Shown in pieces: positions 716 to 37,462 of a stretch of 64,000 nt of DNA. The DNA lies in NCBI GenBank assembly GCA_964567895.1, contig CAZMOX010000004.1, positions 560 through 64,559 of the forward strand, given 5' to 3'. This DNA comes from an uncultured Spirochaetales bacterium. GTDB taxonomy: Bacteria > Spirochaetota > Spirochaetia > JABMQR01. The notes beneath the pieces were generated by a model. The model worked only from the letters and a program-made list of their open reading frames with translations. It was not told where the DNA came from and made no database searches. A program made the translations under genes and the position numbers. Numbering within the stretch: position 1 is the stretch's first letter; each line of letters opens with the position of its first letter.

Positions 716-783
716 AAAGACCTGGAATATTGTATTTGATATGCTGAGTTGTTTCTGCTTGAAAACTGTACTATAATTTGCTC

Positions 784-4230: not shown

Positions 4231-4590
4231 AGCTTGTTTTAATGAGAGCGTAGTCAAGTATAAATATATGAATATTTTCGACTATAAAGTAGAATATTCT
4301 GATAAGCTTTCACCTTTTTGAAGCAATCATATATACTATTATTATACGACAGTTCGTGATGTTCATGAACTGATTTGTAAACTTATCAAAGTAATATAAT
4401 ATAAGTAAATAACAACATTTAGCTTGAGTGAATGATGGGCTATTATTGGTAGTTTTACTGTGGTTTTCTGCTGGTTTTGTCTTGGTGGCTATATGTAAAT
4501 ATATTAACGTAAAATTAGAAATATTTTAGTTGACTTGCTGTATAAGCCATGCTACCATTGACTACGTTATCATAATAAATGGAGGACTAC

Positions 4591-5892
4591 ATGACTAAAA
4601 AACTAATTTTAACAGCAATTATTATTGCTCTTCTGATTCCGGCAGCACTATTTGCTGGAGCAGAACAAGAAGCGGCTGCACCCGTTGAAGGGCTTCAGGC
4701 TCCCGACAAAGCAACCGAAATTGACATGATGGGGTGGAGATATCCGATTACAGAGTTTTATGCTGAAGAATTAACAGGATTAAATGACATTGACAATCTG
4801 AAAGTTACTACACAGTTACTGGATTCAGGTTCTGCGAAAGAACAGATTCGTCTTGCTCTTTCCGGTTCTGGAACATCACCCTATGAAATTATCCATGCAG
4901 ATGATCCTTTTGTAAATGAGCTTGCTTCAAATGGTTGGCTTCTGCCCTTGGATGACCTTATTGCCAAGTACTCTGATGAATACGACCTGACTGATATTTC
5001 CCAGGGATTTTATGACATGGGAACTTATGAAGGAAAAGTCTATGGTATTCCTATTATAGCAAATTCAATGAATTATTTTTATAACATGGAAATGTTTGAA
5101 GAACTTGGTCTTGATGTTCCTGAAACATATGCTGACGTTCTTGCATCAATCGAAGTACTTAGTGCTCTTGACGGTGTTAAACCATTTACTATCAACCTGC
5201 ATGCAGGTTGGGCCTGGAGACTTGAGTTTCATAACTTCCTTATTGCCTGCGGCGGTACATGGCTGAATGAAGATAGTACAGCTGCATTTAACGGACCTGA
5301 AGGTGTTAAAGCTGTTGAAACTATAATGAGCGTAGTTGCTGTAATGGGAGCCGATGGTCTTTCCTGGAGTATTGATGATTCAGAAATCGGACTTGAAACA
5401 GGAACTCTTGCAAGTGCTGTAACCTGGACAAGCCGCGCAGCAGCAATGGATGATCCTAATAAGTCACAATATGTAGGGAAAATCGGATTTGCTCCTGCTC
5501 CCTCTGTAATTGCCGGCGGACCTCATGCAGGACCCGCAGCAGTAGATTTCTATTCAATTCCTGCTGGAACTGATGTAGATCCTGATTTTATATTCCAGGT
5601 AATAATGCAGGCAGCTGACCTTGAGAGTCAGGTTGCAGCAGCAGATTACGGGCTGGTAACAAGGAGTGAAGTAGCTGCATTAGGTGCAGGCGGACGATAC
5701 ATTGATGCTGCTCAGAAAACTATTGCCAATGGATCAGGAAATTACGGCTTTAATCCTGCTATTAAGCTAGCTAAAGTTGCAATTGAAAACATTCTTCCGA
5801 AAGTAGCAAATGGCGACATGAGTGTTCAGGAAGTTCTGGACGAAGCTGCTGCATTATATACAGCAGAAGCAAAAGCTCAGGGATACCTCTAA
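4591..5892 (+). CDS. ABC transporter extracellular solute-binding protein (family 1, sugar/oligosaccharide CUT1-type) with signal peptide
   Basis: GGAGG RBS 4 nt before ATG 4591. N-terminus MTKKLILTAIIIALLIPAALFAGAEQ is signal-peptide-like. Size and motifs fit SBP_bac_1. Confidence 0.85.
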   Translation: MTKKLILTAIIIALLIPAALFAGAEQEAAAPVEGLQAPDKATEIDMMGWRYPITEFYAEELTGLNDIDNLKVTTQLLDSGSAKEQIRLALSGSGTSPYEIIHADDPFVNELASNGWLLPLDDLIAKYSDEYDLTDISQGFYDMGTYEGKVYGIPIIANSMNYFYNMEMFEELGLDVPETYADVLASIEVLSALDGVKPFTINLHAGWAWRLEFHNFLIACGGTWLNEDSTAAFNGPEGVKAVETIMSVVAVMGADGLSWSIDDSEIGLETGTLASAVTWTSRAAAMDDPNKSQYVGKIGFAPAPSVIAGGPHAGPAAVDFYSIPAGTDVDPDFIFQVIMQAADLESQVAAADYGLVTRSEVAALGAGGRYIDAAQKTIANGSGNYGFNPAIKLAKVAIENILPKVANGDMSVQEVLDEAAALYTAEAKAQGYL

Positions 5893-5906
5893 AATCTTAT
5901 ACATCG

Positions 5907-5950
5907 GGATTCAGTCTGTTGTGATGCAGACTGAATCCTGCTTTTCTTTT
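5907..5950 (+). terminator. Rho-independent terminator after SBP gene
   Basis: GGATTCAGTCTG-ttgtgatg-CAGACTGAATCC perfect 12-bp stem followed by tgcttttctttt. Confidence 0.7.
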
Positions 5951-5996
5951 ATAATATACCTATTGATGAGGTTCCGTTAAATTACCTGCATGGAAA

Positions 5997-6018
5997 CGAA
6001 GGGGTTAGCCCCTTTTTG
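5997..6018 (+). terminator. Second weak terminator/attenuator between SBP and permease genes
   Basis: AAGGGG-ttag-CCCCTT followed by TTTTT. Confidence 0.3.
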
Positions 6019-6149
6019 GATGTTTGTAATTCGTTATAAAATAAAAACTCAATTTCACTAGTTCAAAAATTTTGAATCCATGTAAACATGGGTATGAATT
6101 ACTCTCAGTCAGGTGTTACTATCTTTTTTAAGGACATTAAATAATAGTT

Positions 6150-7013
6150 ATGGATAATAAAACGTTTGTTTCATTTGTTAGTCCCAGTGTAATAATAATG
6201 CTTGTACTTATGGTTTTCCCATTGGTTACTGCAATTGTTTTGGGATTTAATTATATCACCTTTCAAAATTTTGCTGATCCGGTCTTTGTAGGCCTTCAGA
6301 ACTATAAAGAATTGCTGGTCGATTCAGCATTTTGGGGATCACTAAAATTTACTCTCATCTATATAGTCTTCACGGTCCCGGTTCAGATTGCCATCGGGTT
6401 TTTAGTTGCGCTTCTTCTTGATCAGGTAGAGCGTTTTCGCGGAGTCTATATTGCGGCTTCTCTTTTACCTTTTGTTGTTACTCCAGTAGTAGGAACATTA
6501 ATGTTTAGAAGCTTGTTTGATAGAGGCGGAGGGCTTTTTTACTATCTCCTTGATGTTCTTTTTAATTATGAATTTTTTATGACTACTACATCGGTAAGGC
6601 TTTTAATAATTCTACAGGGGATTTGGTATACGACCCCATTTTCTATGATTACTCTTTTTGCCGGGCTTCAGACCCTGCCGAAATCAGCAATGGAAGCTGC
6701 TACTGTTGATGGTGCGAATGCGTTTCATAAATTGTGGTATGTGGTTCTTCCTCATCTGCGATCATTATTTGTTTTTATAGGAATGATTGCTGTTATGGAT
6801 GCATATCGTGTATTTGATAATATTCTGGTTATGACGAAAGATAACCCTATATTTAATGCCGATACAATTATGTATTACAACTTCAAGATGGCAATTTCGT
6901 TTGGAAGACAGGGCAAGGCGAACGCTATGTCAATTCTTACAATCTTTGGTATATTTATTGTCTTGATTCCATTCCTTAGAACTACGTATAAACAGCAGAT
7001 GGAGAAGAGATAA
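6150..7013 (+). CDS. ABC transporter permease (MalF/UgpA-like, BPD_transp_1)
   Basis: Six predicted TM segments with an EAA-loop region (AATVDGANAFHKLWYVVLPHL). Confidence 0.85.
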   Translation: MDNKTFVSFVSPSVIIMLVLMVFPLVTAIVLGFNYITFQNFADPVFVGLQNYKELLVDSAFWGSLKFTLIYIVFTVPVQIAIGFLVALLLDQVERFRGVYIAASLLPFVVTPVVGTLMFRSLFDRGGGLFYYLLDVLFNYEFFMTTTSVRLLIILQGIWYTTPFSMITLFAGLQTLPKSAMEAATVDGANAFHKLWYVVLPHLRSLFVFIGMIAVMDAYRVFDNILVMTKDNPIFNADTIMYYNFKMAISFGRQGKANAMSILTIFGIFIVLIPFLRTTYKQQMEKR

Positions 7014-8044
7014 TGAGAAAAATCAAAAACCCTATTGCCAGAGCAGGTATACATATACTGTTATTTGTATGGGTCTTTTATAGTGTTATCCCATTCTTAT
7101 GGACGGTATTAACCTCTCTGAAGCTTCCTGTTGAAGCGAATAACAGGACTCCAAAAATATTCGGATTTAAAGTTACTTTTGATAATTATGCATCATTGTG
7201 GTTGAAGCCTGATCAAAAACGAAGACCTTTTACCTATGATAATTTTATACCTGTGGGTATTATTATTCTGGTGATTTTGGTTTTGCTGGTTGCCTTCTAT
7301 TTTCTTTCTCAGAGATACTTAAAGCTTTCTAAACCCAAAGCGGGACTTATACTGACAGGCATATTGCTGCTCGTTGTTATCTTTTTGCCGAATGTGGCTG
7401 AGATGTCAAAATCCTATGACTATTTTGTAAATAGTATAATTGTTACTTTCTTTACGCTTATTATTTCGATAAGCATAGGCTGTCTTGGCGGGTATGCGAT
7501 TGCCAGATACGATAAGATCTGGGGTGTTGTGATACTGATTGCTGCTCTTGCTTTCAGGGCCTTACCCCGAATGGCTTTTGTACTTCCCTACTACTATCTT
7601 GGAAATGCTATTAATCTGTATGATACAAAAATACTATTGATTATGATACTGGTTGCTGTTAATCAGCCTTTCACTATATGGATGCTTAGAAGTTTTTTTA
7701 TGGATATACCGAAAGAGCTGGAAGAAGCCGCCATGATTGACGGGGCAGGCCGCCTGCAGTCCTTTTTTAGAGTAATACTGCCAATTTCCTGGCCGGGAAT
7801 TATTACCACAAGTCTCTTTACGTTGTTACTTGCCTATAATGAATTCCTACTGCCGAGAATATTGACTCAGTCAAACTGGACTTTTCCTGTTCAGATAGCT
7901 TCTTATACAAGTGGTGAGGATGCAGCTTATAAAACAGTAGCTGCTGCGGCATCGGTATCGATAACCTTACCGTTAATATTTATTATCGTTATTTTCCAGA
8001 AAAGACTAGTGAAAGGATTAGCTGTAGGAGCTGTAAAGGGGTAA
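7013..8044 (+). CDS. ABC transporter permease (MalG/UgpE-like), with long N-terminal periplasmic loop
   Basis: EAA motif AAMIDGAGRLQSFFRVILPISWPG. The start overlaps the upstream stop (ATGA). Confidence 0.85.
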   Translation: MRKIKNPIARAGIHILLFVWVFYSVIPFLWTVLTSLKLPVEANNRTPKIFGFKVTFDNYASLWLKPDQKRRPFTYDNFIPVGIIILVILVLLVAFYFLSQRYLKLSKPKAGLILTGILLLVVIFLPNVAEMSKSYDYFVNSIIVTFFTLIISISIGCLGGYAIARYDKIWGVVILIAALAFRALPRMAFVLPYYYLGNAINLYDTKILLIMILVAVNQPFTIWMLRSFFMDIPKELEEAAMIDGAGRLQSFFRVILPISWPGIITTSLFTLLLAYNEFLLPRILTQSNWTFPVQIASYTSGEDAAYKTVAAAASVSITLPLIFIIVIFQKRLVKGLAVGAVKG

Positions 8045-8185
8045 GGAAATTAATTTTGAAAGAACCTTACATGAGAGTATGAAGCTGTTTTTGAGTAAGC
8101 AAGAAGATATAATTATGACATTAAGTTCAGCCTGCAGTATTCGGGCTGTACCTATTTTTATTTGATAAATATTCAGGAGATGATA

Positions 8186-9193
8186 ATGGATGAGAAATTA
8201 TTACTAGAAGCAAAGGAACTTGTAAGCGCTTATCATAAAAAACTGTCAGAAAAGGGCGGTATCTTCAGCATTAAAAAGATTTTGCCGGATTATTTAGATA
8301 CGCAAACTATTTTTGATTGCTCTCATCCGATAAACAGATTAACTGGCATAGATGAAGTCTATCAGGGTTTCTGGGAACCTTTTATCAAGGCATTTCCTGA
8401 TGTACAAAGAAGAGACGATATTTTTCTTGGCGGAGTATTTAAAGAGGGGTATTGGATATCCTCAACTGGCTACTTTGCAGGAAATTTTGAGAATGATTGG
8501 CTTGATATTCCGGCAACAAAGACTCTGGCCTATGTCAGGTTTGGTGAGTTTAATAAAGTTGAAAATGGTAAGATTACTGAAACGATTATCATCATAGACT
8601 TTCTTGACTTGATGCGGCAGGCGGGTGTCAAAGTCCTTGCAGATAGCTTAGGTTATGAAGGGCTTGTTCCTGCTCCTTCAAACCAGAAGGGACTGATGAG
8701 TGAAATTCAGAATAGAGAAGAGAGCAAAGGGACGCTCAGTCTTGTTGAAGATATGCTTTCTGGTCTCATGACCTATGATGAGTCGGGTGAATTGGGCAGT
8801 ATGGGCCAGAATAGATTTTGGGATGAAAAGATGATGTGGTACGGTCCCTCAGGTATAGGTACTACAAGAGGTCTTGATGGTTTTGAGAAATATCATCAAA
8901 GATCCTTTTTGAAGGCTTTTCCTGATAGGGTTGGAGGAAATCACCGCTCCCGAATTGGGGATGGTATGTTTGCAGCTTCAACTGGTTGGCCGAGCATTAA
9001 TGCAACACATGCAGGTGGGGGATGGCTTATGATGCCTGCAACCAATAAAAAAATAACTATGCGTGTTATGGATTGGTGGCGCAGAGAAGATGACAAGCTA
9101 GTTGAGAACTGGGTGCTTATCGATATAATTGAGTGCCTTAATCAATTTGGGGTGGATTTATTTGCACGTATGAGAGAGATGCTGCAGAAGTAG
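8186..9193 (+). CDS. Tandem SnoaL-like (NTF2-fold ester-cyclase family) domain protein
   Basis: AGGAG RBS 6 nt before ATG 8186; the ORF caller used TTG 8162. Paralog of the 1-715 and 1967-3112 genes (MMWYGPSGIG...ENWVLIDIIECLNQFGVDLFAR). Confidence 0.7.
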   Translation: MDEKLLLEAKELVSAYHKKLSEKGGIFSIKKILPDYLDTQTIFDCSHPINRLTGIDEVYQGFWEPFIKAFPDVQRRDDIFLGGVFKEGYWISSTGYFAGNFENDWLDIPATKTLAYVRFGEFNKVENGKITETIIIIDFLDLMRQAGVKVLADSLGYEGLVPAPSNQKGLMSEIQNREESKGTLSLVEDMLSGLMTYDESGELGSMGQNRFWDEKMMWYGPSGIGTTRGLDGFEKYHQRSFLKAFPDRVGGNHRSRIGDGMFAASTGWPSINATHAGGGWLMMPATNKKITMRVMDWWRREDDKLVENWVLIDIIECLNQFGVDLFARMREMLQK

Positions 9194-9332
9194 CACTGCA
9201 GAAGATTGTAGATTAACGATCAATAAACACAAAAAGAGTGAAATATACGACTTTTTATTCTGGACAATGGAAGTTTATGGCGCTATAATATGACTACGTA
9301 TTCAATGGCTGGTCAAATAGCAAGGAAGAAGA

Positions 9333-10388
9333 ATGGCTGAACAAATATTTTTTAAAGTAGAGAAATTGCAGAACTATCTTTCGGAAATGTACTCGAAAGC
9401 AGGTTTATCAAAAGAGGATGCGGATATTTGTGCGGAATGCACAATACTGACAAACCTTTGGGGAGTAGATTCCCATGGGGTGCTCAGGACTCCTGCCTAT
9501 ATAAAAAGAGTGCTTAAGGGTGCTGTGAATAAGAGTGCAAACCCTTTTTACATAAAAGGAGAAGGTGGACCACTAGCCATTATGGATGGCGATGCCGGAA
9601 TGGGCTATGTAGTTGGTTCCAGGGTAATGGATGCTGCTGTAGCAAAAGCGAAAGAGTTTGGGTTCGGAATGATTGTGGTTAAAAACAGTAATCATTTTGG
9701 AGCTGCCTCTTTGTATACACGTCGGGCTGCAGATGCCGGTATGTTGGGCATTGTGACAACAAATGTTATACCAAATATTGGAATGCCGGGAAATATAAAA
9801 CCAGTATCCGGGAATAATCCATTAGCTTTAGCAGCACCTATTGGTAAACCCTATCCATTTTCATTGGATATCTCTATGAGTGCTGTTGCCGGGGGGAAGC
9901 TTCTTCTGGCTCAAAAAAAAGGTGACAAAATTCCGACCACGTGGTCAATAGATAAAGAAGGAAACCCAACTGATGATCCATTTAAAGGATTTGAAGGGAT
10001 TTTACTTCCCACCGGAATGCACAAAGGTCTGGGAATGTCTTTCTTCATAGATATCATAACTGGTGTTATGAGTGGAGGACCCTTTTTACAGAACATAAAG
10101 AGTATGTACAAGCATGCAGATGAGCCGAGTTTGACATCGCATGTCTTTTGTGTTATCGATCCGGAATTCTTTATGGAGAAAGAAGAGTTTTCCGGGAGAA
10201 TGGCTCAGTGGGTTGATATGATTAAATCTACGCCAATGGCTGCCCCGAAAACTGAACAGATAATTCCCGGAGAGATTGAGTACAACTGTGAGATGGCAAG
10301 AAGGAAGTCGGGGATTCCTTTACCTGCTGAACTGGTTGAAGATCTCAAGGCACTGGAAGAACAATTTAAAATGGATAACAGACTGTAA
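9333..10388 (+). CDS. Ldh2-family (malate/L-lactate/sulfolactate/ureidoglycolate dehydrogenase-type) NAD(P)-dependent 2-hydroxyacid dehydrogenase
   Basis: Ldh_2 hallmark VVKNSNHFGAASLYTRRAADAGMLGIVTTN and overall length. Confidence 0.8.
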   Translation: MAEQIFFKVEKLQNYLSEMYSKAGLSKEDADICAECTILTNLWGVDSHGVLRTPAYIKRVLKGAVNKSANPFYIKGEGGPLAIMDGDAGMGYVVGSRVMDAAVAKAKEFGFGMIVVKNSNHFGAASLYTRRAADAGMLGIVTTNVIPNIGMPGNIKPVSGNNPLALAAPIGKPYPFSLDISMSAVAGGKLLLAQKKGDKIPTTWSIDKEGNPTDDPFKGFEGILLPTGMHKGLGMSFFIDIITGVMSGGPFLQNIKSMYKHADEPSLTSHVFCVIDPEFFMEKEEFSGRMAQWVDMIKSTPMAAPKTEQIIPGEIEYNCEMARRKSGIPLPAELVEDLKALEEQFKMDNRL

Positions 10389-10434
10389 AAGTCTCAATCA
10401 TACACATTACTAAAGATATAGAGGAGAAAGAGTT

Positions 10435-11349
10435 ATGAAAAAACAGACTGAATTTAAGTTAAACCAGAGAGATTCTGTGTGGTTTCAGGAAAATAGTGCA
10501 CATGTAGTTGTTGAATATGCAAAGAATGTTTGTGATATTGCAATCCTTCCAATTGGAGCAATTGAACAGCATTCAGCACATGCGCCAACAGGAATGGACA
10601 CCTATAATGCAATTGGAATTTCAGAGAAAGTGGCTGAGAAAACCGGTGCCATGCTTCTTCCCTGTCCCATGTACGGATCGCATCCCCATCACCATTGGGG
10701 AATGCCCGGAACAATTCCATTAACCTATGAAACACACATTGGACTTCTGATGGATATCATCAGAGGAGCTGCTGTATCCGGTTACAATAAGTTCTTAATC
10801 ATTTCGGCTCATGGTCAAGTTTCCTCTACCATAGTTGCAACACATAAATTGGGTATTGAAGGATTATTTACCATCTCATCAACATGGTACGACTTTCTCC
10901 GGGATGATAAAACAGTTCTTGAAGACTATATGTGGCATGCTGATGAAGCAGAGACTTCTGTTGGTCTCTATCTCTATCCGCAGTTTATAAAGATGGAACT
11001 GGCTGAGGCTGGTTACGGCACTCCTCTTATTGATTCAAAATGGAAAATTGCTCCGGGTCAGGCAGCAAAGGCAGGGACACTCTACCACTTTGAAGGAACC
11101 TTTGCTCTTCCGGAAAAAGATGATCTTGATAATGGCGTTATCGGAGATCCTACAAAAGCAACTTACGAAAAAGGTAAGGGTGTTATTGAAGGTGTTGTAA
11201 AGCATTATGCAGGACTTGTTGATGAAATCAAAACAAAATACCCCTGTGGAATAAATCCGCTTGGATTTAGAAACCCGGCTGGTTATGCAGGTACTTCAGA
11301 TATTGTATATGACAAAGATCATGACAGCAAAGGGCAGTTAATTAAATAA
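10435..11349 (+). CDS. Creatininase-family (creatinine amidohydrolase / ArfB / inosose-hydrolase-type) metal-dependent hydrolase
   Basis: ILPIGAIEQHSAHAPTGMD and His/Glu metal-ligand pattern. ~300 aa, longer than canonical creatininase. Confidence 0.7.
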   Translation: MKKQTEFKLNQRDSVWFQENSAHVVVEYAKNVCDIAILPIGAIEQHSAHAPTGMDTYNAIGISEKVAEKTGAMLLPCPMYGSHPHHHWGMPGTIPLTYETHIGLLMDIIRGAAVSGYNKFLIISAHGQVSSTIVATHKLGIEGLFTISSTWYDFLRDDKTVLEDYMWHADEAETSVGLYLYPQFIKMELAEAGYGTPLIDSKWKIAPGQAAKAGTLYHFEGTFALPEKDDLDNGVIGDPTKATYEKGKGVIEGVVKHYAGLVDEIKTKYPCGINPLGFRNPAGYAGTSDIVYDKDHDSKGQLIK

Positions 11350-11461
11350 TATTTAATTATTGAAATTGCCTACATGTACAGAATTGTAAAAGAGAGCAGA
11401 GCTGAATACCCAGGGGTAATAGGTCTGCACTTCTCTTATTGGAACAGGAGAGCTAAATAAG

Positions 11462-12883: not shown

Positions 12884-12895
12884 GGATTCAATAGG

Positions 12896-14035
12896 ATGAA
12901 TAGAAGAGAAATATTTACTGCAGCTATGAACCATCAGGAAACAGGCCGCGTACTTGTTGATCAGGGAAAACAGGTCGGTTCGATACATAAATTCGGATAC
13001 GCCAGGATACGCGAGATGATGGGACTTCCTCCTAAAGAGGGCATTATTCTTGATAGAATGAGTCAGTGCGTTATCTCCGATGAAGATTTGCTTGAAGCCT
13101 GGGGAATTGATTTTAGATGGTTAATTCCGAACTGGGTACAGATTGAGGAGATTGATGAAGATCATTATAGAAATCTATTTGGTGTTCTATTCAGGAATTC
13201 CGGAGACTATTTTTCTATATATGATGCTCCCATGAAAGGAAAAGAGATTGATGTTCTAGATAGCTACAAGTGGCCGAATCTGCACGATACTGCAATGTTT
13301 GCAGGGTTAAGAGATCGTGCAGAGGATTTACACAACAATACTGACTATGTAATTGGAGCAGATGGGATCAAGGGCGGAATTTTCCAGACAAGTCTTGAGT
13401 TGAGAGGCTATGATCAACTCTATATGGATTTTTACCTTGAACCGGATTTTGCTCATGCACTACTTGATAAAGTCACTGAATGCTATAAAGAGATGTATAC
13501 GGATTACATGCGTGAAGTGGGGGAGTTTGTACAGATTGTCTATCTCACAGATGATTTTGGCAGTCAGAATTCCCTGTTGATGTCCGGAGACATGTGGGAA
13601 ACATTCATGAAACCCCGTCAGGCAGATCTCATTGCACATATCAAATCTTTAGCACCACATGTGAAGGTAATGTTCCATACAGATGGATCGGTACTTCCTA
13701 TTATCGATGGAATGATCGATATGGGTGTTGATATCCTTAATCCTGTACAGACTTCTGTAGAGGAGTTGAAGGATACCCATGCTTTGAATGAGCAATATGG
13801 TGAAAAAATTGCATTTCACGGTGCTATTGATGTACAGAATGTTATGGTGAATGCAACTCCTGGCCAGATTCGGGAAGAAGTTAATCTACGTCTGTGCGAT
13901 CTGGGAAAAGGCGGTGGCTATATTATTGCTACCTGCCATAATATTGGTTACGACATACCTCCTGAGAACTTAAAAGCATTTTATGCTGCAGTTAAGGAGT
14001 TTTCTGCATATCCGTTAAAACGATTGGGAGAGTAG
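12896..14035 (+). CDS. Uroporphyrinogen-decarboxylase (URO-D)-like TIM-barrel protein (MtaA/CmuA-like family)
   Basis: C-terminal pattern VDILNPVQ...IAFHGAIDVQNVM...GGGYIIATCHNI is typical of the UroD/MtaA family. Confidence 0.65.
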   Translation: MNRREIFTAAMNHQETGRVLVDQGKQVGSIHKFGYARIREMMGLPPKEGIILDRMSQCVISDEDLLEAWGIDFRWLIPNWVQIEEIDEDHYRNLFGVLFRNSGDYFSIYDAPMKGKEIDVLDSYKWPNLHDTAMFAGLRDRAEDLHNNTDYVIGADGIKGGIFQTSLELRGYDQLYMDFYLEPDFAHALLDKVTECYKEMYTDYMREVGEFVQIVYLTDDFGSQNSLLMSGDMWETFMKPRQADLIAHIKSLAPHVKVMFHTDGSVLPIIDGMIDMGVDILNPVQTSVEELKDTHALNEQYGEKIAFHGAIDVQNVMVNATPGQIREEVNLRLCDLGKGGGYIIATCHNIGYDIPPENLKAFYAAVKEFSAYPLKRLGE

Positions 14036-14042
14036 TAGGATT

Positions 14043-14828
14043 ATGAAAATTACAAATGATAACTATGTGAAAAAACTGCTGAAAGAGGGGAAGAAAGTTA
14101 CAGCAGCCTGGGCACAGGCTGCAAGTCCTATTACCGCAGAAATATTGGGAGATGCGGGATTTGATGCCGTCATGATAGATATGGAACATGGTCCTGGAGA
14201 TATCATGATGCTTATCAATCAGATCAATGCCTTGAAAGGTCAACCGGCTGTTCCTTTTGTACGGGCACCCTGGAATGATTTTGTTCAGCTGAAAAAGATA
14301 CTTGATGCCGGAGTCTATGGGGTACTTGTTCCGTATGTGAATAGTGCTGAAGAAGCAGAAGCAGCGGTTAAAGCAGTAAGATATCCAACTGAAGGAATCA
14401 GGGGAGTTGCAGGTAGTCCAAAAGCGCCGCACTTTGGGAACAACTCTATGGAATATATGAAAAAGGCAAATGAAGAGATATTTCTCATGACTGCAGTAGA
14501 GACTCCGGAAGCCGTAGCAAATCTGGATGAATTGCTTAAAGTTGAAAAACTTGACGGCATTTTTATCGGTCCAATGGATCTTGCAACGAGCATGGGGTAT
14601 TTTGGAAATCCTCAGCATCCTGAAGTGCAGAAAGCTATACAGGAAGTTGAAGAAAAAGTATTTGCCAGTAACAAAATTCTCTCTACTATTGCCGGTTCCT
14701 GGGAAGATGCAAAAACGAAATACGATAGAGGATATCAGCTGCTGTTACTCATGTCTGATACCGTAACACTTAGCAAGACAGCCAGAGCTCTAACCGGCTC
14801 ATTTGCAGATGCCTATCCCGGACGATAA
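14043..14828 (+). CDS. HpcH/HpaI-family class II aldolase (2-keto-3-deoxy sugar acid aldolase type)
   Basis: GFDAVMIDMEHGPGD and GIFIGPMDLATSMG motifs of the HpcH/HpaI/YfaU family. Confidence 0.8.
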   Translation: MKITNDNYVKKLLKEGKKVTAAWAQAASPITAEILGDAGFDAVMIDMEHGPGDIMMLINQINALKGQPAVPFVRAPWNDFVQLKKILDAGVYGVLVPYVNSAEEAEAAVKAVRYPTEGIRGVAGSPKAPHFGNNSMEYMKKANEEIFLMTAVETPEAVANLDELLKVEKLDGIFIGPMDLATSMGYFGNPQHPEVQKAIQEVEEKVFASNKILSTIAGSWEDAKTKYDRGYQLLLLMSDTVTLSKTARALTGSFADAYPGR

Positions 14829-14875
14829 TATCCGTTTTTAGCTTGATACATAATTATTTATAGAAGGAGAATAGT

Positions 14876-15889
14876 ATGATAAAAGTAGGAGTAGCCGGAT
14901 ACGGCGTAATAGGACAGAGGCTTGCCGATGGAGTTGCATGGCAGAAAGATATGGAGTTGGTTGGAGTTGCAGATGTGGCTCCCACATTACCAATACGTGC
15001 ACTTTATGAGAGTGGAATGCGGTACAAACTGTATACTGCAGTACCTGAGAAGAAAAATCTGCTCACTGATTTAGGTATTCCTGTAAGCGGAACCCTTGAA
15101 GATCTGGTGCAGGAAGTCGACATCATACTTGATGCTACCAGTGCCGGAATTGGAGCTAAGAATAAAGAGCTATACCAAAAATATAATACCAAAGCTATAT
15201 TTCAGGGCGGTGAGAAAAATGATGTAGCAGATGTTTTTTTCCATGGATATGCAAACTATGAAAAAGGTGTTGGAGCTGACTACTTAAAACTTACCAGCTG
15301 TAATACAACCGGATTGATTCGTGCAATTGATGCAATTGACCGTGCAGTTGGTGTGGTGAAGACAGCAATTACGATCATTAGACGTGTTGCAGATCCCGGC
15401 GATTATCATCGTGGACTTACTAATGCCCTACAGGTTGATAAGGCTCCCAGCCATCAGTGTCTTGATTTAATGACAATAATGCCGCATGTGGATGCAACCG
15501 GTATACTGATTCATACACCGGTAACCCATGGACATATTATTACTCCGGTTGTTAGTACCAAGAGTAAAATAAACAAAGAAGAATTGTTGGCAATTTTTAA
15601 TGCACACCCCAGGATCAAAGTGGTACGGATTGAAGATGGGTTTCTTGGTAATGCTTCTTTATTTAAGTATGCCAGAGATCTTGGGAATAAACGCGGTGAC
15701 ATGTATGAAGTTGCTGTTTGGGAAGAGTCTATTGTCAATAGTGGAGATGACATCATGTTTGCTATGAATATCCCGCAGGAGTCTGTCGTTATTCCTGAGA
15801 CTATGGACGGCATACGTGCAGCAATGAAGATGCAGTTGACACGTGATGAAGGAACAGCCGAAACAAATAAATATCTTTGGATGAAATAG
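14876..15889 (+). CDS. gap: Archaeal-type (type II) glyceraldehyde-3-phosphate dehydrogenase homolog
   Basis: 337 aa. Type-II GAPDH signatures: N-terminal GxGxIG Rossmann, active-site TSCNTTGL, and overall similarity to archaeal GAPDH. Confidence 0.8.
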   Translation: MIKVGVAGYGVIGQRLADGVAWQKDMELVGVADVAPTLPIRALYESGMRYKLYTAVPEKKNLLTDLGIPVSGTLEDLVQEVDIILDATSAGIGAKNKELYQKYNTKAIFQGGEKNDVADVFFHGYANYEKGVGADYLKLTSCNTTGLIRAIDAIDRAVGVVKTAITIIRRVADPGDYHRGLTNALQVDKAPSHQCLDLMTIMPHVDATGILIHTPVTHGHIITPVVSTKSKINKEELLAIFNAHPRIKVVRIEDGFLGNASLFKYARDLGNKRGDMYEVAVWEESIVNSGDDIMFAMNIPQESVVIPETMDGIRAAMKMQLTRDEGTAETNKYLWMK

Positions 15890-18436
15890 ATGGAAAAGCG
15901 AACTGAACATATACCTGAGGAAGTTTCAGGCTCCCCGGGATTTCTCCCGATGGAGAGCTTCGAGGTGAAGGGGAAACGAGTCTTGCTGCGGCTGGATGTC
16001 AACTCCCCGATCGACCCGGAGACCAAACGGATCGTAAATGAGAACCGGATGGATAAAAGCCTGCCGACCCTGAAGTGGCTGCTCAATCAGGGTGCGAAAG
16101 TGGCCGTAATCGCCCATCAGGGCGATACGCTGGATTACCAGAATCTGATTCCTTTAAGTGAACATGCAGAAAAGCTGAGTGCAAAACTGGGACGGGAAGT
16201 TGCCTACATCGATGATGTCTGCGGCCCTGCTGCCCGGGAAGCTGTTGCAGGTTTGTCCGATGGACAGTGTATTATCCTTGGTAATCTACGGTATTTGTGT
16301 GAAGAGATATCCACCTTTGAGGATGCAGTGAAACTGCGCCCCGAAGAGATGCTGAACACCTGGTTAGTGCGTTCTCTTGCACCCCTATTCGATCTCTACA
16401 TAAATGATGCCTTTGCTGCAGCTCATCGGAATGCACCGAGTATGGTAGCTTTTCAGGAACTGCTTCCCAGTGCAGCCGGACCGCTGCTCTATAAGGAAGT
16501 AAGTGCGCTTACAAAGGTGATGAAATCACCTGAGCATCCAGCCGTTTTTGTTCTAGGCGGGGCCAAAATATCCGACGCCTTTGGGATGATGGAACAGGTT
16601 CTGGCCAACGGGACAGCCGATACGATTCTGACAATCGGGGTAACCGGAGAAATATTCCTGATAGCCGCAGGGTATGACTTAGGCTCTGCAGTACAGAAAT
16701 TCATAGAAGACCGGCACCTGGGAGTTTTTATTACCGAGGCAAAGAAGTACCTGAAATCCTATCCGGGACATATTGTACTGCCCGAAGATCTGGCCTATGG
16801 GGACGGAGGTTTGCGTAAAGAAATTCCAGTCTCAGAGCTGCCGGTTGATGAACTGTTTATGGATATAGGGAGTAATACGATACAAAGCTATAAAGAGATT
16901 ATTGCTAATGCAGGAACCTTGTTTGTGAACGGACCGGCAGGAGTATTTGAAGATGGATTGTTTGCCAAAGGGACGGAAGAGTTGTGGAAAGCGATTGCAG
17001 CTTCAAACGGATACTCGGTAGTAGGCGGTGGAGATAGTGTAAGTGCGGCAGCGAGGTTTACCGAGCTTTCAGACTACAGCTATGTCTGTACCGCAGGCGG
17101 TGCAATGGTACGGTTTCTTTCGGGGAAAAAGCTTCCGCTGATTGAGGCGATGGAGAAAGCGGGAGGCAAGGGAGCGGAGACGGGAGACGGGAGGATGAAG
17201 ATAAACCTTCCGTATAAGAGAGATGCTATACAGATAGATATACCGGCAGAACGGTTGGCCGGGGTGCTTGAGCCTAATGAGGTAGTGAGTGCTGAGGATC
17301 CGATCGCTGTTGTTCGCAAATCTTTTTCTCACGTTTATGGGACTCAGAGTTTTGCCGAATTTCTGGAAGCACCCGGTGAACTGCTGGTTATCGTAAATGA
17401 CGGAACAAGGCCGACTCCTACCCGGTTTGTTATCGAGGCCATAGCCGATGAGCTGGAAATTGCCAAAGCAACATTCATGATCGCTACCGGAGTACACCGC
17501 GGACCGACAGCAGAAGAGTATGAATTTATCTTTGGCAGCCAATATACTCGATTCGCGGAACGCATTCTGGTGCATGATGCCCGCAAGGATGAGATGGAGT
17601 ATCTGGGAGTCTCAAAGAACGGCACCGAAATGTATCTGAATAAAAAAGGAGTAGGGTTTGACAAGATCCTGATCATTGGGTCAGTAGAGCCGCACTACTT
17701 TGCAGGCTATACCGGAGGCCGGAAAGGATTGCTTCCGGGGATAGCTTCCTATCATACCATTGAACAGAACCACAAACATGCACTTTCTCCGAAGGCCTGT
17801 GCCTTGGCGCTGGAAGGCAATCCGGTGCATGAGGATATGATTGATGCGTTGAAAGTGGTGAAGAATAACCTATTCACGATAATGACGGTATTGGACAAAC
17901 ATCAGGAGATCTATGGGGTAACATCCGGGGATATTTATGCAGCCTTTTCCGGAGCAATTGGCAAAGCGAATGAGGTATTTGTGGCACCGATAGCAGAGAA
18001 GGTTGATGTAGTAGTAACGTGTGCAAAGTATCCTATGGATGTTGATTTGTATCAGGCACAGAAAGCGATAGAGAATGCGAAGCTGGCACTGAAGCCCGGC
18101 GGAATACTGATACTGGTGGCAGCGTGTCGGGACGGGATAGGGGAGAAAGCTTTTAGCGATCTGCTGAGTTCCTGTGAAACTAGTGAAGCGGTTTTGGCAA
18201 AGATAGAGCAGGAGTATAAGCTGGGGTATCACAAGGCGGGAAAGATAGCCGAGGTGAACCAGTGGGCGCAGATATGGGCGTATACGGAATTAGCAGATGA
18301 GACATTGGAGCAGATATTTCTGCATCCGGTTAACAATTTGCAGGAAGCGATAGATAAGGCCTTACGGGAGAAGGGTGATAGAGCGAAAGTGCTCTTTCTG
18401 CCTGACGGCAGTGTCACTGTCCCTCAATTATCATAA
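15890..18436 (+). CDS. pgk: Fusion protein: archaeal-type phosphoglycerate kinase (N-terminal ~410 aa) + LarA-like nickel-pincer-nucleotide 2-hydroxyacid racemase/epimerase domain (C-terminal ~420 aa)
   Basis: PGK motifs LLRLDVNSP, YINDAFAAAHR, VLGGAKISD, NGPAGVFE, GGGDSVSAA. The C-terminal LarA/DUF2088 motifs are IVNDGTRPTP, ATGVHRG and GSVEPHYFAGYTGGRK. The 848-codon ORF is uninterrupted. Confidence 0.8.
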   Translation: MEKRTEHIPEEVSGSPGFLPMESFEVKGKRVLLRLDVNSPIDPETKRIVNENRMDKSLPTLKWLLNQGAKVAVIAHQGDTLDYQNLIPLSEHAEKLSAKLGREVAYIDDVCGPAAREAVAGLSDGQCIILGNLRYLCEEISTFEDAVKLRPEEMLNTWLVRSLAPLFDLYINDAFAAAHRNAPSMVAFQELLPSAAGPLLYKEVSALTKVMKSPEHPAVFVLGGAKISDAFGMMEQVLANGTADTILTIGVTGEIFLIAAGYDLGSAVQKFIEDRHLGVFITEAKKYLKSYPGHIVLPEDLAYGDGGLRKEIPVSELPVDELFMDIGSNTIQSYKEIIANAGTLFVNGPAGVFEDGLFAKGTEELWKAIAASNGYSVVGGGDSVSAAARFTELSDYSYVCTAGGAMVRFLSGKKLPLIEAMEKAGGKGAETGDGRMKINLPYKRDAIQIDIPAERLAGVLEPNEVVSAEDPIAVVRKSFSHVYGTQSFAEFLEAPGELLVIVNDGTRPTPTRFVIEAIADELEIAKATFMIATGVHRGPTAEEYEFIFGSQYTRFAERILVHDARKDEMEYLGVSKNGTEMYLNKKGVGFDKILIIGSVEPHYFAGYTGGRKGLLPGIASYHTIEQNHKHALSPKACALALEGNPVHEDMIDALKVVKNNLFTIMTVLDKHQEIYGVTSGDIYAAFSGAIGKANEVFVAPIAEKVDVVVTCAKYPMDVDLYQAQKAIENAKLALKPGGILILVAACRDGIGEKAFSDLLSSCETSEAVLAKIEQEYKLGYHKAGKIAEVNQWAQIWAYTELADETLEQIFLHPVNNLQEAIDKALREKGDRAKVLFLPDGSVTVPQLS

Positions 18437-18459
18437 AAATAAAATAACAGGAGAAACAG

Positions 18460-19119
18460 ATGAAGAAGAAAGTAGGAGTAATACATACCTTTCTCTATTC
18501 AGTAGAAGCACTTAAAGAACTCTTTGAAGAGTTAATTCCCGAAGTGGAAATGATTAATATCATAGATGACTCACTTTTAAAAGAAGTATTGGCAAATGGC
18601 GGACCTACCCCGGCAGTAGTACGAAGAATATGCAACTATGCACAGGAACTTGAGAACCTTGGATGTGATATAATTCTTAATCAGTGCTCATCAGTCGGAG
18701 AAGCTGCAGATATAGCACAGAAGCTGATATCAATACCCTACATCAAAGTTGATTCACCTATGGCCTGTGAAGCAATACGGCTGGGGAAAAAGATTGGTAT
18801 GGTCGCAACTGCATATACTACACTGGGACCATCAGTACGTCTTGTAGAGACAACAATCAAAGAGTTGGGTTCTGATGCCGTGGTGAACGAATGTTTTGCT
18901 GAGGGTGCATATGATGCACTGCTGAATGAGGGAAACAAAGCAAAGCATGATGAAATATTAATGGCTACCATTGATAAAGCGTGTGCTGAAAACGATGTAG
19001 TATGTTTGGCACAGGGTAGTATGATTAGTTTGCTCGAGAAATGTAAAGATAAACCTGTTCCTGTAATACACAGTTTCCGTAGCGGCGTAGCTCAGATTCG
19101 TGATATACTAGGGCTCTAA
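18460..19119 (+). CDS. Asp/Glu/hydantoin racemase family protein
   Basis: ~220 aa with a Cys-containing two-subdomain pattern (ILNQCSS...VVCLAQGSM) typical of Asp/Glu racemase-like enzymes. Confidence 0.65.
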   Translation: MKKKVGVIHTFLYSVEALKELFEELIPEVEMINIIDDSLLKEVLANGGPTPAVVRRICNYAQELENLGCDIILNQCSSVGEAADIAQKLISIPYIKVDSPMACEAIRLGKKIGMVATAYTTLGPSVRLVETTIKELGSDAVVNECFAEGAYDALLNEGNKAKHDEILMATIDKACAENDVVCLAQGSMISLLEKCKDKPVPVIHSFRSGVAQIRDILGL

Positions 19120-19141
19120 TTCAATGTAGGAGTGGTTATCT

Positions 19142-20176
19142 ATGGCAAAGGTTCTGCAGAATAAACGCGCAACATCAAAAGATGTAGCCAGAGAGGCAGG
19201 AGTCTCACAATCAACTGTTTCCAGAGTGTTCAACAGCAGCGGTATCAGTGTCTCTGATGCGAAAAAGCAAAGGATATTTGAGACTGCTGAGAGGTTGGGA
19301 TACAGACCCAGTCAGATAGCCAGATCCCTGAACTCGCAGAGTACTAAAATTATTGGTTTTGTTCTTAGTGAATTTGAGAATGTATTTTATATGAGAGTTC
19401 TCTCACTCTTTACAAAAAAGCTGCAGGAGGCCGGATATTCGGTAATGATTTTCAATCTGAATGATGATCATGAAGTAGAGAAAAATCTCAAAACAGCACT
19501 TGAATATCAGGTTGCTGGTCTGATAATTACTTCCGCAACCCTTTCCTCACCATTAGTTGAGGGCTGTCTCCGATATAAGACACCGGTCTTTCTTTTTAAT
19601 CGAATTAGTGATGGACTGAATGTAAATACGGTGTGCTGTGATAATATTGATGGTGGAAAAACTATAGCAAATTATCTGATAGATCGCGGTCATCAAAAAT
19701 TGGTCTATATTTCTGGTGAAGAAAAATCTTCAACCAACCGTGACAGGAAAAAGGGATTTATTGAGCAGTCGAAAAGCAGGGGGTTGGCAGAAGTTGTTGT
19801 TCTCCCCGGGAATTATAAGTATGAAGCAGGATTTGCTGCTGCCGATACATTAACTAAGGAAAAAGTAGAGTTTGATGGTGTTTTTTGCGCTGCCGATGCA
19901 ATGGCATTGGGTTTTATTGATTATATAAAATATAGAACCGAACTGAGAATACCTGAAGATATCTCTATCATAGGGTTTGATGGAATTCCGCTGCATAACG
20001 AGATCCATTACCAGTTAACTACTTTCAAACAACCGATGGAGAGAATGGTTGATAAAACTATAGAAGGACTGCTTGATAAGATTAAAAATTTTAGGACAGA
20101 TGCAGTGCATTATCTCTTTTTTGGCCAAATCATGGTACGTGGGTCAGTTGCAGATAGAAATAAAGAGTTAAGGTAA
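19142..20176 (+). CDS. LacI family transcriptional regulator
   Basis: N-terminal HTH ATSKDVAREAGVSQSTVSRVFN plus a periplasmic-binding-protein-like sugar-binding fold. Confidence 0.85.
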   Translation: MAKVLQNKRATSKDVAREAGVSQSTVSRVFNSSGISVSDAKKQRIFETAERLGYRPSQIARSLNSQSTKIIGFVLSEFENVFYMRVLSLFTKKLQEAGYSVMIFNLNDDHEVEKNLKTALEYQVAGLIITSATLSSPLVEGCLRYKTPVFLFNRISDGLNVNTVCCDNIDGGKTIANYLIDRGHQKLVYISGEEKSSTNRDRKKGFIEQSKSRGLAEVVVLPGNYKYEAGFAAADTLTKEKVEFDGVFCAADAMALGFIDYIKYRTELRIPEDISIIGFDGIPLHNEIHYQLTTFKQPMERMVDKTIEGLLDKIKNFRTDAVHYLFFGQIMVRGSVADRNKELR

Positions 20177-22970: not shown

Positions 22971-22987
22971 TAATAATGGAATAAAAT

Positions 22988-27141: not shown

Positions 27142-27144
27142 CCA

Positions 27145-37368: not shown

Positions 37369-37421
37369 TTTCAAAAATCCAAGAAATTAAATCTGTGATT
37401 TAATTCGATTTTTGAAATTAA
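37365..37421. terminator. Long nested AT-rich palindrome between convergent pelG and the 618-aa gene; candidate bidirectional terminator
   Basis: Outer 15-nt arms TTAATTTCAAAAATC / GATTTTTGAAATTAA, plus inner arms GAAATTAAATC / GATTTAATTC around a tgt loop. The left arm overlaps the pelG stop codon. Confidence 0.35.
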
Positions 37422-37462
37422 CTAAAAAATTCACATCCATCAAAAACTTCTGACGTTAATTA

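Follow-up and report, generated by a model that had tools for sequence, protein, structure and literature searches.

A LacI-linked catabolic island of an uncultured spirochaete, tentatively read as a variant of a widespread pathway for a methylated polyol

We analyzed a 64,000-nucleotide stretch of DNA from an uncultured Spirochaetales bacterium (GenBank assembly GCA_964567895.1, contig CAZMOX010000004.1, positions 560 to 64,559; this whole stretch is called the window), whose nearest named relatives are Spirochaetia and Spirochaetales metagenome-assembled genomes (MAGs). The window carries a block of 13 co-directional open reading frames (ORFs), all on the plus strand between positions 4579 and 20176, to which domains were assigned with Pfam and NCBIfam. 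They encode the solute-binding protein (SBP) and two permeases of a CUT1-type ATP-binding cassette (ABC) importer, a SnoaL-like protein, an Ldh_2-family 2-hydroxyacid dehydrogenase, a creatininase-family hydrolase, a FucI-family isomerase, a UroD/MtaA-fold protein, an HpcH/HpaI aldolase, a type II glyceraldehyde-3-phosphate dehydrogenase (GAPDH-II), a phosphoglycerate kinase (PGK) fused to LarA, an Asp/Glu-racemase-superfamily protein and a LacI repressor. A first-pass annotation, made from the sequence without database searches, had listed the same 13 genes, PGK::LarA included, and the ORF coordinates and domain matches agree with it. We read the block as a system for uptake and catabolism under LacI control and as the spirochaete form of a widespread, uncharacterized pathway for a methylated, probably carbocyclic C7 polyol. 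We hold this reading tentatively, at slightly less than an even chance. It builds on the gene content and the fusion, a core gene order found across phyla, a corrinoid link seen in other genomes, a distinct clade of GAPDH-II and PGK and a common operator palindrome, each of which was directly observed.

A core cluster shared across phyla and its corrinoid link

In order to place the block in a wider context, the UroD-like protein was used as a probe, which recovered more than 1,000 strong homologues. Taking one genome per species gave 80 loci (designated by L numbers), onto which the window genes and accessory genes were mapped by phmmer; these loci were searched for the query gene set, and about 40 selected ORFs were also scanned against Pfam. 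This revealed the recurrent order (SMP-30 lactonase)-(SDR)-Ldh_2-creatininase-like-(SDR)-FucI-like-UroD-like-HpcH, where SDR is a short-chain dehydrogenase/reductase. At least the hydrolase, isomerase and UroD-like genes occur together in 48 of the 80 loci (the core loci). The core was found in at least eight phyla, with Spirochaetota, Desulfobacterota, Chloroflexota, Proteobacteria, Firmicutes and Acidimicrobiia among the carriers; the proteobacterial ones are Woeseiaceae and other Gammaproteobacteria, Paracoccaceae (Alphaproteobacteria), and Rhodoferax and Noviherbaspirillum (Betaproteobacteria), and those from the Firmicutes are Alkalibacter rhizosphaerae, Faecalicatena orotica and Vallitaleaceae. 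Its companions are CUT1 ABC or tripartite ATP-independent periplasmic (TRAP) transporters, LacI regulators and one to six SnoaL-type paralogues.

The gene order of the window recurs in L023, L008, L010, L017 and L089. The combination is therefore not unprecedented, as had been claimed for it; judged by sequence comparison, the core is a common cluster, the window is one variant of it, and no characterized pathway appears to match. This last point had been anticipated by the first-pass annotation and is borne out by the closest PDB and NCBIfam matches, which fall below the family cut-offs (GAPDH-II, which exceeds its own, apart). Literature searches on topics including the enzyme combination, PGK-LarA fusions, corrinoid demethylation of methylated sugars, mycosporine catabolism and inositol/transketolase/malate semialdehyde found nothing describing either the core or the GAPDH-II/PGK/LarA module. 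The mlp gene clusters (PMC10418091) are a different system. A gene-neighborhood comparison had been suggested as a check on co-occurrence of the fucI-like, hpcH, gap and pgk::larA genes; the core held together in the 48 loci, and GAPDH-II is present in 5 of them.

The core loci differ in how they are completed. A histidinol-dehydrogenase (HisD)-like gene is found in 19 of the 48, and a tail (GAPDH-II/PGK, transaldolase or DUF1537 kinase) is found in 14, and the two never co-occur (Fisher P = 2e-4, not corrected for phylogeny). An SDR is encoded in all 43 core loci that lack GAPDH-II, compared with one of the five that have it, and an aldehyde:ferredoxin oxidoreductase (AFOR) takes the place of the SDR in L023 and L136. 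The latter, a metagenomic variant, keeps the hydrolase and the aldolase, has a 2-Hacid_dh (D-2-hydroxyacid dehydrogenase) for Ldh_2 and a KduI/IolB-type isomerase for the FucI-like protein, and adds the AFOR, a tungsten enzyme. Such nonorthologous displacement supports the generic roles of 2-hydroxyacid dehydrogenase and aldose-ketose isomerase for the proteins replaced. Reduced loci in Paracoccaceae and relatives (L068, L070, L071, L075, L076 and L087) contain only UroD-like, HpcH, corrinoid protein, SnoaL-type and LacI genes, without the hydrolase, isomerase or Ldh_2. Judging from these loci, no part of the core seems to be linked as tightly as the UroD-like/HpcH pair.

Of the 80 loci, 36 encode a corrinoid (B12-binding) protein within 10 kb of the UroD-like gene; in 11 no other gene separates the two, and in L085 they are fused as one ORF of 663 amino acids (aa). 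A Pterin_bind methyltransferase occurs in 17 of the 80, and methylenetetrahydrofolate reductase (MTHFR), a MetE-like protein and the RACo activase also accompany the corrinoid protein in related loci. The AlphaFold2 model of the UroD-like protein (pLDDT 92) has MtaA (4ay7; TM score, 0.68) as its best Foldseek match, with uroporphyrinogen decarboxylases scoring almost as high. Further inspection of the family revealed invariant H261-x-D263, H308 and C347-H348 at the positions where MtaA and MetE bind zinc, forming a His-x-Asp...Cys-His set instead of the His-x-Cys...Cys zinc motif of MtaA-type enzymes. From these features, the UroD-like protein is proposed to be the substrate:corrinoid methyltransferase of a three-component system. 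Like the corrinoid O-demethylases and methyltransferases of anaerobes (MT1, corrinoid protein, MT2 and activase, of the MtaA/MtaC type), the related loci pair a UroD/MtaA-fold enzyme with a B12-binding protein, a Pterin_bind methyltransferase, MTHFR and RACo. Unlike those systems, the window is without corrinoid and pterin components, the module sits inside a sugar-like catabolic operon, and the zinc motif is changed. Because corrinoid proteins and pterin-binding methyltransferases are linked to the UroD-like gene in related loci, the substrate of the cluster is probably methylated, which points away from an L-sugar or a sulfonate. The first-pass annotation, which had put forward those two substrate classes, overlooked the link. 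In a gammaproteobacterial MAG (L006/L007), the core adjoins three MttB-family methyltransferases, a second corrinoid protein, two MTHFR genes and a RACo activase, which together make up a large methyl-group-harvesting island.

The creatininase-family hydrolase has IolN as its best named NCBIfam family (149 bits against a cut-off of 245), with creatininase and MftE at 75 bits. This closeness to a ring-opening diketone hydrolase also had been overlooked. IolN opens the 2-hydroxy-1,3-diketone ring of 3-dehydro-scyllo-inosose. As in the myo-inositol pathway of Thermotoga maritima, to which IolN belongs, a creatininase-family hydrolase is encoded in a sugar-type operon with ABC import, and a retro-Claisen opening of a 2-hydroxy-1,3-diketone ring is proposed; the score below the cut-off, the lack of Gfo/Idh/MocA dehydrogenases or IolO and the other partner enzymes set our cluster apart. 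The FucI-like isomerase scores 40 bits against the FucI model (cut-off, 775) and 78 against sulfoquinovose isomerase SftI (cut-off, 700), and in equivalog score and length it differs from L-fucose/D-arabinose isomerases, which have about 590 aa. All NCBIfam equivalogs are under cut-off for Ldh_2, the best name being L-sulfolactate dehydrogenase (257 bits against 500). The aldolase gene adjoins the UroD-like gene in most loci. The protein resembles the 2-keto-3-deoxy-acid aldolases GarL, HpaI and HpcH in its full-length HpcH_HpaI domain and its expected product, pyruvate, but it falls below every equivalog cut-off, those of GarL and HpaI included, and its proposed substrate, with a tertiary carbinol, would yield a ketone and not an aldehyde. 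PDB sequence searches found no close relative of the UroD-like, FucI-like or creatininase-like proteins.

The names SftI and L-sulfolactate dehydrogenase recall the second of the routes put forward in the first-pass annotation, a sulfonate route. Worked out in full, it would have a sulfosugar such as sulfoquinovose isomerized, cleaved to sulfolactaldehyde and oxidized, with a gain of ATP, to sulfolactate, which would be racemized and dehydrogenated. Sulfolactate is isosteric with malate, and a transaldolase follows the isomerase in some relatives, as in sulfo-TAL clusters. Indeed, sulfoglycolysis clusters (sulfo-TAL and sulfo-ED) share with ours a FucI-family isomerase, an SDR, an SMP-30-type lactonase, an aldolase or transaldolase and an aldehyde isosteric with glyceraldehyde 3-phosphate (GAP). 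However, the sulfo-specific matches are far below cut-off, and no sulfoquinovosidase, sulfolyase, desulfonating or sulfoacetaldehyde enzyme, or sulfite or sulfonate exporter was found among the Pfam-scanned ORFs of the window (for the related loci, the gene set and selected ORFs given above). In addition, the partner of LarA is malic enzyme, and the corrinoid link is left unexplained. We consider a sulfonate route highly improbable.

A GAPDH-II, PGK and LarA module probably distinct from glycolysis

The pyruvate aldolase gene adjoins the GAPDH-II and PGK genes, so that the description of an aldolase beside an oxidizing, ATP-yielding aldehyde module appears to be sound. PGK::LarA is encoded identically, with the same neighbors, on two independent metagenome contigs; the fusion thus is not an assembly artifact. 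The junction reads ...LPLIEAMEKA-GGKGAETGDGR-MKINLPYKR.... In relatives, PGK has a stop codon and LarA starts a few bases on, and L008, L010 and L017 have separate genes. The closest LarA homologues are stand-alone proteins of 413 to 423 aa (95, 89, 87 and 86% identity), and none of the best 120 matches is fused. Sequence comparison thus indicates that the fusion is real, recent and lineage specific. The GC content is 0.49 across PGK::LarA (16001 to 18000) and about 0.40 around it, which is consistent with a foreign, archaeal-type ancestry of the module.

Ordinary PGKs dominated the matches when the entire fusion protein served as the query. The nearest structures are the GAPDHs of M. fervidus and P. 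horikoshii and the PGK of P. horikoshii. The PGK domain has a full-length PGK fold, aligning over its whole length with 2cun, 1vpe and 3uwd, with the nucleotide and hinge motifs present. Its motif HQGDT takes the place of the usual HxG(R/K) (HLGRP in bacteria and HQGKP in Pyrococcus). In the 3-phosphate patch, the equivalents of His62, Arg122 and Arg170 (human numbering) are kept and that of Arg65 is Asp. Among 88 members of this PGK clade, all but one have HQGDT, and the exception, HQGDS, still has the Asp. The GAPDH-II is above its family cut-off and conserves the catalytic Cys motif SCNTTG. It has the loop PSHQCLD and not the archaeal PSHHGPD, which we take to have a role in phosphate binding, near the anion sites; all 81 pattern-matching clade members have P(S/N/T)HQ(A/C)xD. 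A metagenome scan for the PGK motifs gave 576 pattern matches, of which 420 were confirmed as relatives; clustering at 50% reduced these to essentially one representative.

In the 88 loci with this PGK clade, the partners are GAPDH-II (82 loci), LarA (32) and malic enzyme (20), with LarA next to malic enzyme in 15. The cultured species Sediminispirochaeta smaragdinae has a clean four-gene GAPDH-II/PGK/LarA/malic-enzyme operon (L169; CP002116, 1022319-1043566), which is divergent from genes for a GntP permease, a PEP_mutase-family lyase, a GntR regulator, a 2-Hacid_dh, an FGGY kinase and a class II aldolase. In L088, a PGK::transketolase fusion is followed by LarA and AFOR.

Alignment of the LarA domain with Mar2 (6D6Z) and LarA showed that the Arg, Lys and His that bind the nickel-pincer nucleotide, both catalytic His residues and the LG-x-HKA motif are kept. 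Its score against the malate racemase equivalog NF052593 is 384 bits, under the cut-off of 500. The H-K motif was linked to the second carboxylate of malate by Desguin and co-workers, who list the LarA residues (PMC7583248). Two papers on the LarA superfamily make no mention of a PGK fusion or of phosphoglycerate or sulfolactate substrates. The domain therefore has the nickel-pincer malate racemase of Thermoanaerobacterium (Mar2/LarAH6; PMC7583248) as its best sequence match and has in common with it the cofactor and catalytic residues and the H-K motif, but it is under the equivalog cut-off, is fused to PGK and has no larBCE genes nearby. The pairing with a Mar-like LarA and the company of malic enzyme led us to a carboxylate analogue of GAP as the likely substrate of the module. 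For the same reason, in that the module travels with a malate-racemase-like LarA and malic enzyme, its product most likely would be malate and not 3-phosphoglycerate (3-PG). With the type II GAPDH and PGK of archaeal lower glycolysis the pair shares its families, its catalytic residues and the logic of 2-hydroxyaldehyde to acyl phosphate to acid plus ATP. It differs from them in lying in catabolic operons, in the clade-specific HQGDT and PSHQxxD motifs, in being paired with or fused to a Mar-like LarA and in having malic enzyme nearby.

In the scheme favored by the first-pass annotation, a rare or L-sugar would be converted to a 2-keto-3-deoxy acid and cleaved to pyruvate and an unusual triose phosphate, which GAPDH and PGK would take to L-3-phosphoglycerate for racemization by LarA. 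The GAPDH-II score above the NCBIfam cut-off for genuine type II enzymes is in keeping with this, as are the six of seven 3-PG-site residues checked that PGK retains and the clade members that stand alone like housekeeping genes. Nevertheless, the island contains no kinase to phosphorylate any intermediate, LarA is Mar-like and has malic enzyme as the recurrent neighbor in many genomes, and neither the corrinoid link nor the ring hydrolase is explained. HpcH-family aldolases, moreover, are known for nonphosphorylated substrates. The scheme is, in our view, very unlikely.

The Asp/Glu-type racemase of the first-pass annotation was correctly placed in its superfamily, but the second catalytic Cys is missing. 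The first Cys is present (NQCSS); at the second position the protein has LAQGSM, as against AGCTE in 1jfl, and the same is true of five orthologues. A protein with a single catalytic Cys fits a single-base isomerase resembling triosephosphate isomerase better than it fits a racemase. The gene accompanies the GAPDH-II/PGK module in 10 loci without transketolase, 7 of which have an HpcH aldolase nearby; it is absent from all 33 loci with transketolase.

A split transketolase is encoded in those 33 of the 88 PGK-clade loci, often with IolB- and IolD-like genes. A cluster recurrent in L095, L102, L103, L162, L003 and about 30 other loci combines IolB-like (KduI) and IolD-like (thiamine pyrophosphate enzyme) genes, split transketolase, GAPDH-II, PGK, LarA and malic enzyme, without the IolC kinase, IolJ aldolase or IolA. 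This has the look of an undescribed variant of inositol catabolism in which transketolase takes part and ATP is conserved. A deduction of D- or L-malate from the stereochemistry of this variant was dropped as unreliable.

A proposed route from a methylated ring to pyruvate and malate

According to our working scheme, the CUT1 system would import the compound and the SnoaL-type enzymes would preprocess it. The UroD/MtaA-like enzyme would move the methyl group of an enol methyl ether to a corrinoid protein encoded outside the window. The resulting 2-hydroxy-1,3-diketone ring would be opened to a hydroxy-keto acid by the IolN-like hydrolase in a retro-Claisen reaction, after which the FucI-like isomerase would turn the terminal hydroxyketone into a 2-hydroxyaldehyde. 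The aldehyde would be oxidized to a 2-hydroxy acid, by SDR and lactonase or by AFOR in other lineages and here probably by GAPDH-II/PGK. Ldh_2 would then give the 2-oxo acid, and HpcH would cleave it to pyruvate and a C4 hydroxy-keto acid. From demethylation to this cleavage, each enzyme would be put to use a single time. This C4 ketone would be oxaloacetate if the HisD-like enzyme had first oxidized the side-chain CH2OH, and 4-hydroxy-3-oxobutanoate otherwise. The one-Cys Asp/Glu-racemase-like protein may convert the latter to 3-hydroxy-4-oxobutanoate (malate semialdehyde, the carboxylate analogue of GAP), a step needed in aldolase clusters because the C4 product there would be a ketone. In the transketolase clusters, malate semialdehyde would be what remains once the ketol unit leaves 5-dehydro-2-deoxygluconate. 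GAPDH-II would form the acyl phosphate, the PGK domain would release ATP and malate, and the fused LarA domain would racemize malate, supplying L-malate to malic enzyme or central metabolism.

As to the identity of the ring, the 4-deoxygadusol/gadusol core of mycosporine-like amino acids is the best single candidate, though a speculative and rather unlikely one, reached by chemical reasoning. A methoxy group flanked by two carbonyls, a pair of CH2 groups and a C(OH)(CH2OH) center make up exactly the ring of 4-deoxygadusol, on which mycosporine-like amino acids are built. The SnoaL-type paralogues, which vary in number, could then take off the variable amino-acid arms. Taken to its end, this idea would mean that mycosporine-like amino acids and gadusol have their first catabolic pathway in the island and its relatives: SnoaL enzymes would remove the arms, cobalamin-dependent demethylation of the enol ether and IolN-like ring opening would follow, the C7 skeleton would give pyruvate and a C4 unit, and in spirochaetes a carboxylate copy of lower glycolysis (isomerase, GAPDH-II and PGK) would lead through malate semialdehyde and malyl phosphate to malate, a substrate-level phosphorylation not known before. 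We regard this complete version as doubtful and would not put it much higher than a long shot. A scheme based on a C6 cyclitol or a hexarate was set aside; it gives tartronate semialdehyde, explaining neither LarA nor malic enzyme.

The same architecture may instead serve another methylated substrate, such as an O-methyl-inositol (pinitol or quebrachitol), an O-methylated sugar or uronic acid, or a methoxylated hydroaromatic acid, with the SnoaL proteins acting as dehydratases (scytalone-dehydratase fold) that supply the deoxy position for the aldolase. The closest characterized relative of the hydrolase works in an inositol pathway, the GAPDH-II/PGK module occurs mostly in IolB/IolD-type clusters, and TRAP transporters in some variants suggest acidic substrates. 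The nearest solved relatives of the SBP, both weak matches, are 5iai ("Sugar ABC transporter") and the sorbitol-binding 4rya ("ABC transporter substrate binding protein (Sorbitol)"). Set against this, a C6 cyclitol or hexuronate would give pyruvate and a C3 unit, leaving the Mar-like LarA, malic enzyme and the DUF1537 four-carbon-acid kinases unexplained, and the exclusivity with the CH2OH-oxidizing HisD-like enzyme is not accounted for. Plain alkyl methyl ethers, furthermore, are poor substrates for the Co(I) chemistry of corrinoid O-demethylases. We judge this alternative unlikely.

Several observations weigh against the C7 polyol scheme itself. Corrinoid protein and pterin methyltransferase are absent from the window and from the 10-kb reach in every spirochaete locus; with no such partner nearby, demethylation in spirochaetes is argued from orthology (46 to 88% identity) alone. 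The nickel cofactor genes larB, larC and larE are absent from the 64-kb window, and L023, the closest relative, is without LarA. GAPDH-II/PGK pairs of the same clade, with the same motifs, lie in unrelated contexts in L129, L147 and L163 (with sulfatase, TonB receptor and LeuA genes), and such stand-alone members could be ordinary glycolytic enzymes; mutagenesis of yeast PGK reportedly found Arg65 not to be essential for catalysis. The transaldolase and DUF1537-kinase/class II aldolase tails lack a chemical explanation. Our choice of substrate comes from reaction logic only, and nothing in the sequence names it.

The fold search, in addition, cannot tell a methyltransferase from a decarboxylase, and the spirochaete UroD-like protein may be a cofactor-free decarboxylase or other lyase acting on a substrate without a methyl group. 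The corrinoid genes elsewhere would then serve a neighboring function, e.g., betaine demethylation. The lack of a corrinoid gene near any spirochaete locus and the near-level scores of the UroD structures are in line with this notion, as is the finding that the Woeseiaceae loci adjoin MttB-family betaine methyltransferase genes. It is countered by the UroD-like::corrinoid fusion in L085, by direct adjacency in 11 loci from several phyla without MttB genes, by the tight conservation of the family and by the invariant His/Asp/His/Cys-His set, which resembles the metal site of MtaA/MetE-type enzymes. We consider the decarboxylase explanation improbable, and methyl transfer to a corrinoid protein remains the function that we propose.

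Operators, transcription units and other genes of the window

The claim that the genes form a single LacI-linked catabolic unit is supported by synteny across genomes and by a common operator palindrome before both the core and the tail operons. A 14-bp palindrome with a central CG, TGACTACGTATTCA (9291 to 9304), lies 29 nt before the Ldh_2 start, just 3' of a promoter-like site (9261 to 9289). A related palindrome, TGACTACGTTATCA (4559 to 4572), ends 7 nt before the SBP start codon, and a weaker copy is found at 4243 to 4256. In ten spirochaete loci, the consensus TGWATACGTATWCA occurs upstream of Ldh_2, UroD-like, SGL lactonase, SBP, DctP (TRAP) and GAPDH-II operons. In L017, it stands ahead of the core operon as well as of a divergent GAPDH-II-PGK-LarA-malic enzyme-racemase-like-LacI operon. 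Because it precedes both kinds of operon across genomes, the comparative evidence for a single LacI regulon of core and tail, with this palindrome as the predicted operator, is good. A window-wide count of the operator pattern at three mismatches gave 7 sites (4.9 expected), which is not significant alone; the case for the operator thus lies in its position and cross-genome conservation. Generic promoter counts in the window are at chance level, and an Rfam scan of the window found no riboswitch, cobalamin or otherwise.

From the FucI-like gene to LacI, the intergenic gaps are 0 to 47 nt. A strong hairpin follows the SBP gene and a further one follows the second permease gene, which suggests several transcription units upstream of Ldh_2. 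The LacI gene is kept at the operon end in L001, L002, L008, L009, L010 and L023. The coordinates of the island features are given in Table 1.

Table 1. Features of the island and its upstream extension (positions are those of the window)
Feature	Coordinates	Strand	Basis or remark
SnoaL-like protein, 230 aa	23..715	+	Pfam SnoaL; upstream island member
AraC-family regulator	778..1632	+	Pfam AraC_binding and HTH_18; island membership uncertain
Double-SnoaL protein, 385 aa	1955..3112	+	Pfam SnoaL, two stretches
Divergent SnoaL-like protein, 316 aa	3122..4072	+	No Pfam match; N terminus resembles first domain of 385-aa protein (BLASTP E 9e-7)
CUT1-type SBP	4579..5892	+	Pfam SBP_bac_1; N-terminal signal peptide (hydrophobic N terminus)
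Hairpin and T-run after SBP gene	5905..5940	+	15-bp stem; terminator or attenuator
ABC permease 1	6150..7013	+	Pfam BPD_transp_1
ABC permease 2	7013..8044	+	Pfam BPD_transp_1
Double-SnoaL protein, 343 aa	8162..9193	+	Pfam, double SnoaL domain; directly after transporter genes
Ldh_2-family 2-hydroxyacid dehydrogenase	9333..10388	+	Pfam Ldh_2, 365 bits
Creatininase-family hydrolase, closest to IolN	10435..11349	+	Pfam Creatininase; NCBIfam IolN, 149 bits
Short FucI-family aldose-ketose isomerase, 473 aa	11462..12883	+	Pfam Fucose_iso N1, N2 and C domains
UroD/MtaA-fold protein	12896..14035	+	Pfam URO-D
HpcH/HpaI class II pyruvate aldolase	14043..14828	+	Pfam HpcH_HpaI, 149 bits, full length
Type II (archaeal-type) GAPDH paralogue	14876..15889	+	Pfam Gp_dh_C; NCBIfam NF003251 (type II GAPDH), 408 bits (cut-off, 185)
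PGK::LarA fusion, 848 aa	15890..18436	+	Pfam PGK, Lar_N and LarA_C
PGK domain of fusion	15890..17161	+	Pfam PGK, 360 bits; motif HQGDT
Linker of fusion, 11 residues (GGKGAETGDGR)	17162..17194	+	Replaces stop codon and spacer of relatives
LarA domain of fusion, malate-racemase-like	17195..18436	+	Best PDB match Mar2 (6D6Z), 244 bits
Asp/Glu-racemase-superfamily protein	18460..19119	+	Pfam Asp_Glu_race; one catalytic Cys; proposed isomerase
LacI-family repressor	19142..20176	+	Pfam LacI

The genes assigned to the block from 4579 to 20176 are all there, but the island starts farther upstream, reaching at least position 23 with three more SnoaL-type genes and an AraC regulator, whose membership is uncertain. 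Homologues of the 230-aa SnoaL-like protein co-occur with the cluster in L009, L024, L029, L046, L049, L057, L126 and L136. The 385-aa double-SnoaL type adjoins a sub-block of corrinoid, pterin methyltransferase and glyoxalase genes in L024, L026, L028, L029, L031, L032 and L049. The position of the 343-aa SnoaL gene also recurs, with one to six SnoaL paralogues following the SBP and two permease genes in L015, L051, L056, L072 and L084. As described in the first-pass annotation, the importer comes without an ATPase; Pfam scans of the window ORFs found no ABC ATPase anywhere in the 64 kb. CUT1 systems usually share an ATPase encoded elsewhere.

A class-V aminotransferase gene (489 aa; 20354 to 21823, minus strand) is convergent to LacI and has the same position in L001, L002, L008 and L023. 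It may belong to the system, e.g., by handling a released amino acid. Directly downstream of the island, a HipA-like kinase (PF07804) with a small upstream ORF (22629 to 24217) is probably a hipBA-type toxin-antitoxin pair. It is followed at 24436 to 28318 by an FdhA-like molybdopterin oxidoreductase with 2Fe-2S and 4Fe-4S domains, which could be a formate dehydrogenase, and then MobB- and MobA-like genes. Pel-type exopolysaccharide genes (PelF-like DUF3492 glycosyltransferase, PelG and DUF2194) occupy 33056 to 40602. Genes for elongation factor P (EF-P), an EpmA-like truncated lysyl-tRNA synthetase and an EpmB-like radical-SAM aminomutase (42179 to 45490) constitute an EF-P beta-lysylation system.

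Every protein of the island comes from a known superfamily; what is apparently undescribed is the cobalamin-linked core pathway and the GAPDH-II/PGK/LarA(/malic enzyme) module, both of which are widespread. Cultured carriers are Sediminispirochaeta smaragdinae, Marispirochaeta aestuarii, Alkalibacter rhizosphaerae, Faecalicatena orotica DSM 1287 and Aliiroseovarius salicola. The speculative substrates, mycosporine-like amino acids and gadusol, are abundant worldwide as sunscreens of microbes and algae. If our reading is correct, the core, found in bacteria of marine sediment, mats, freshwater and the gut, would tie the breakdown of a sugar-like or carbocyclic compound to methyl transfer that depends on cobalamin. 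The GAPDH/PGK paralogue pair, which numbers at least 420 copies in public metagenomes, would let the cell conserve energy from a nonphosphorylated hydroxy-aldehyde acid. Coupled to the malic enzyme and nickel-pincer racemase, the pair would give anaerobic metabolism a further substrate-level phosphorylation, and homologues of LarA would gain a clear physiological role.

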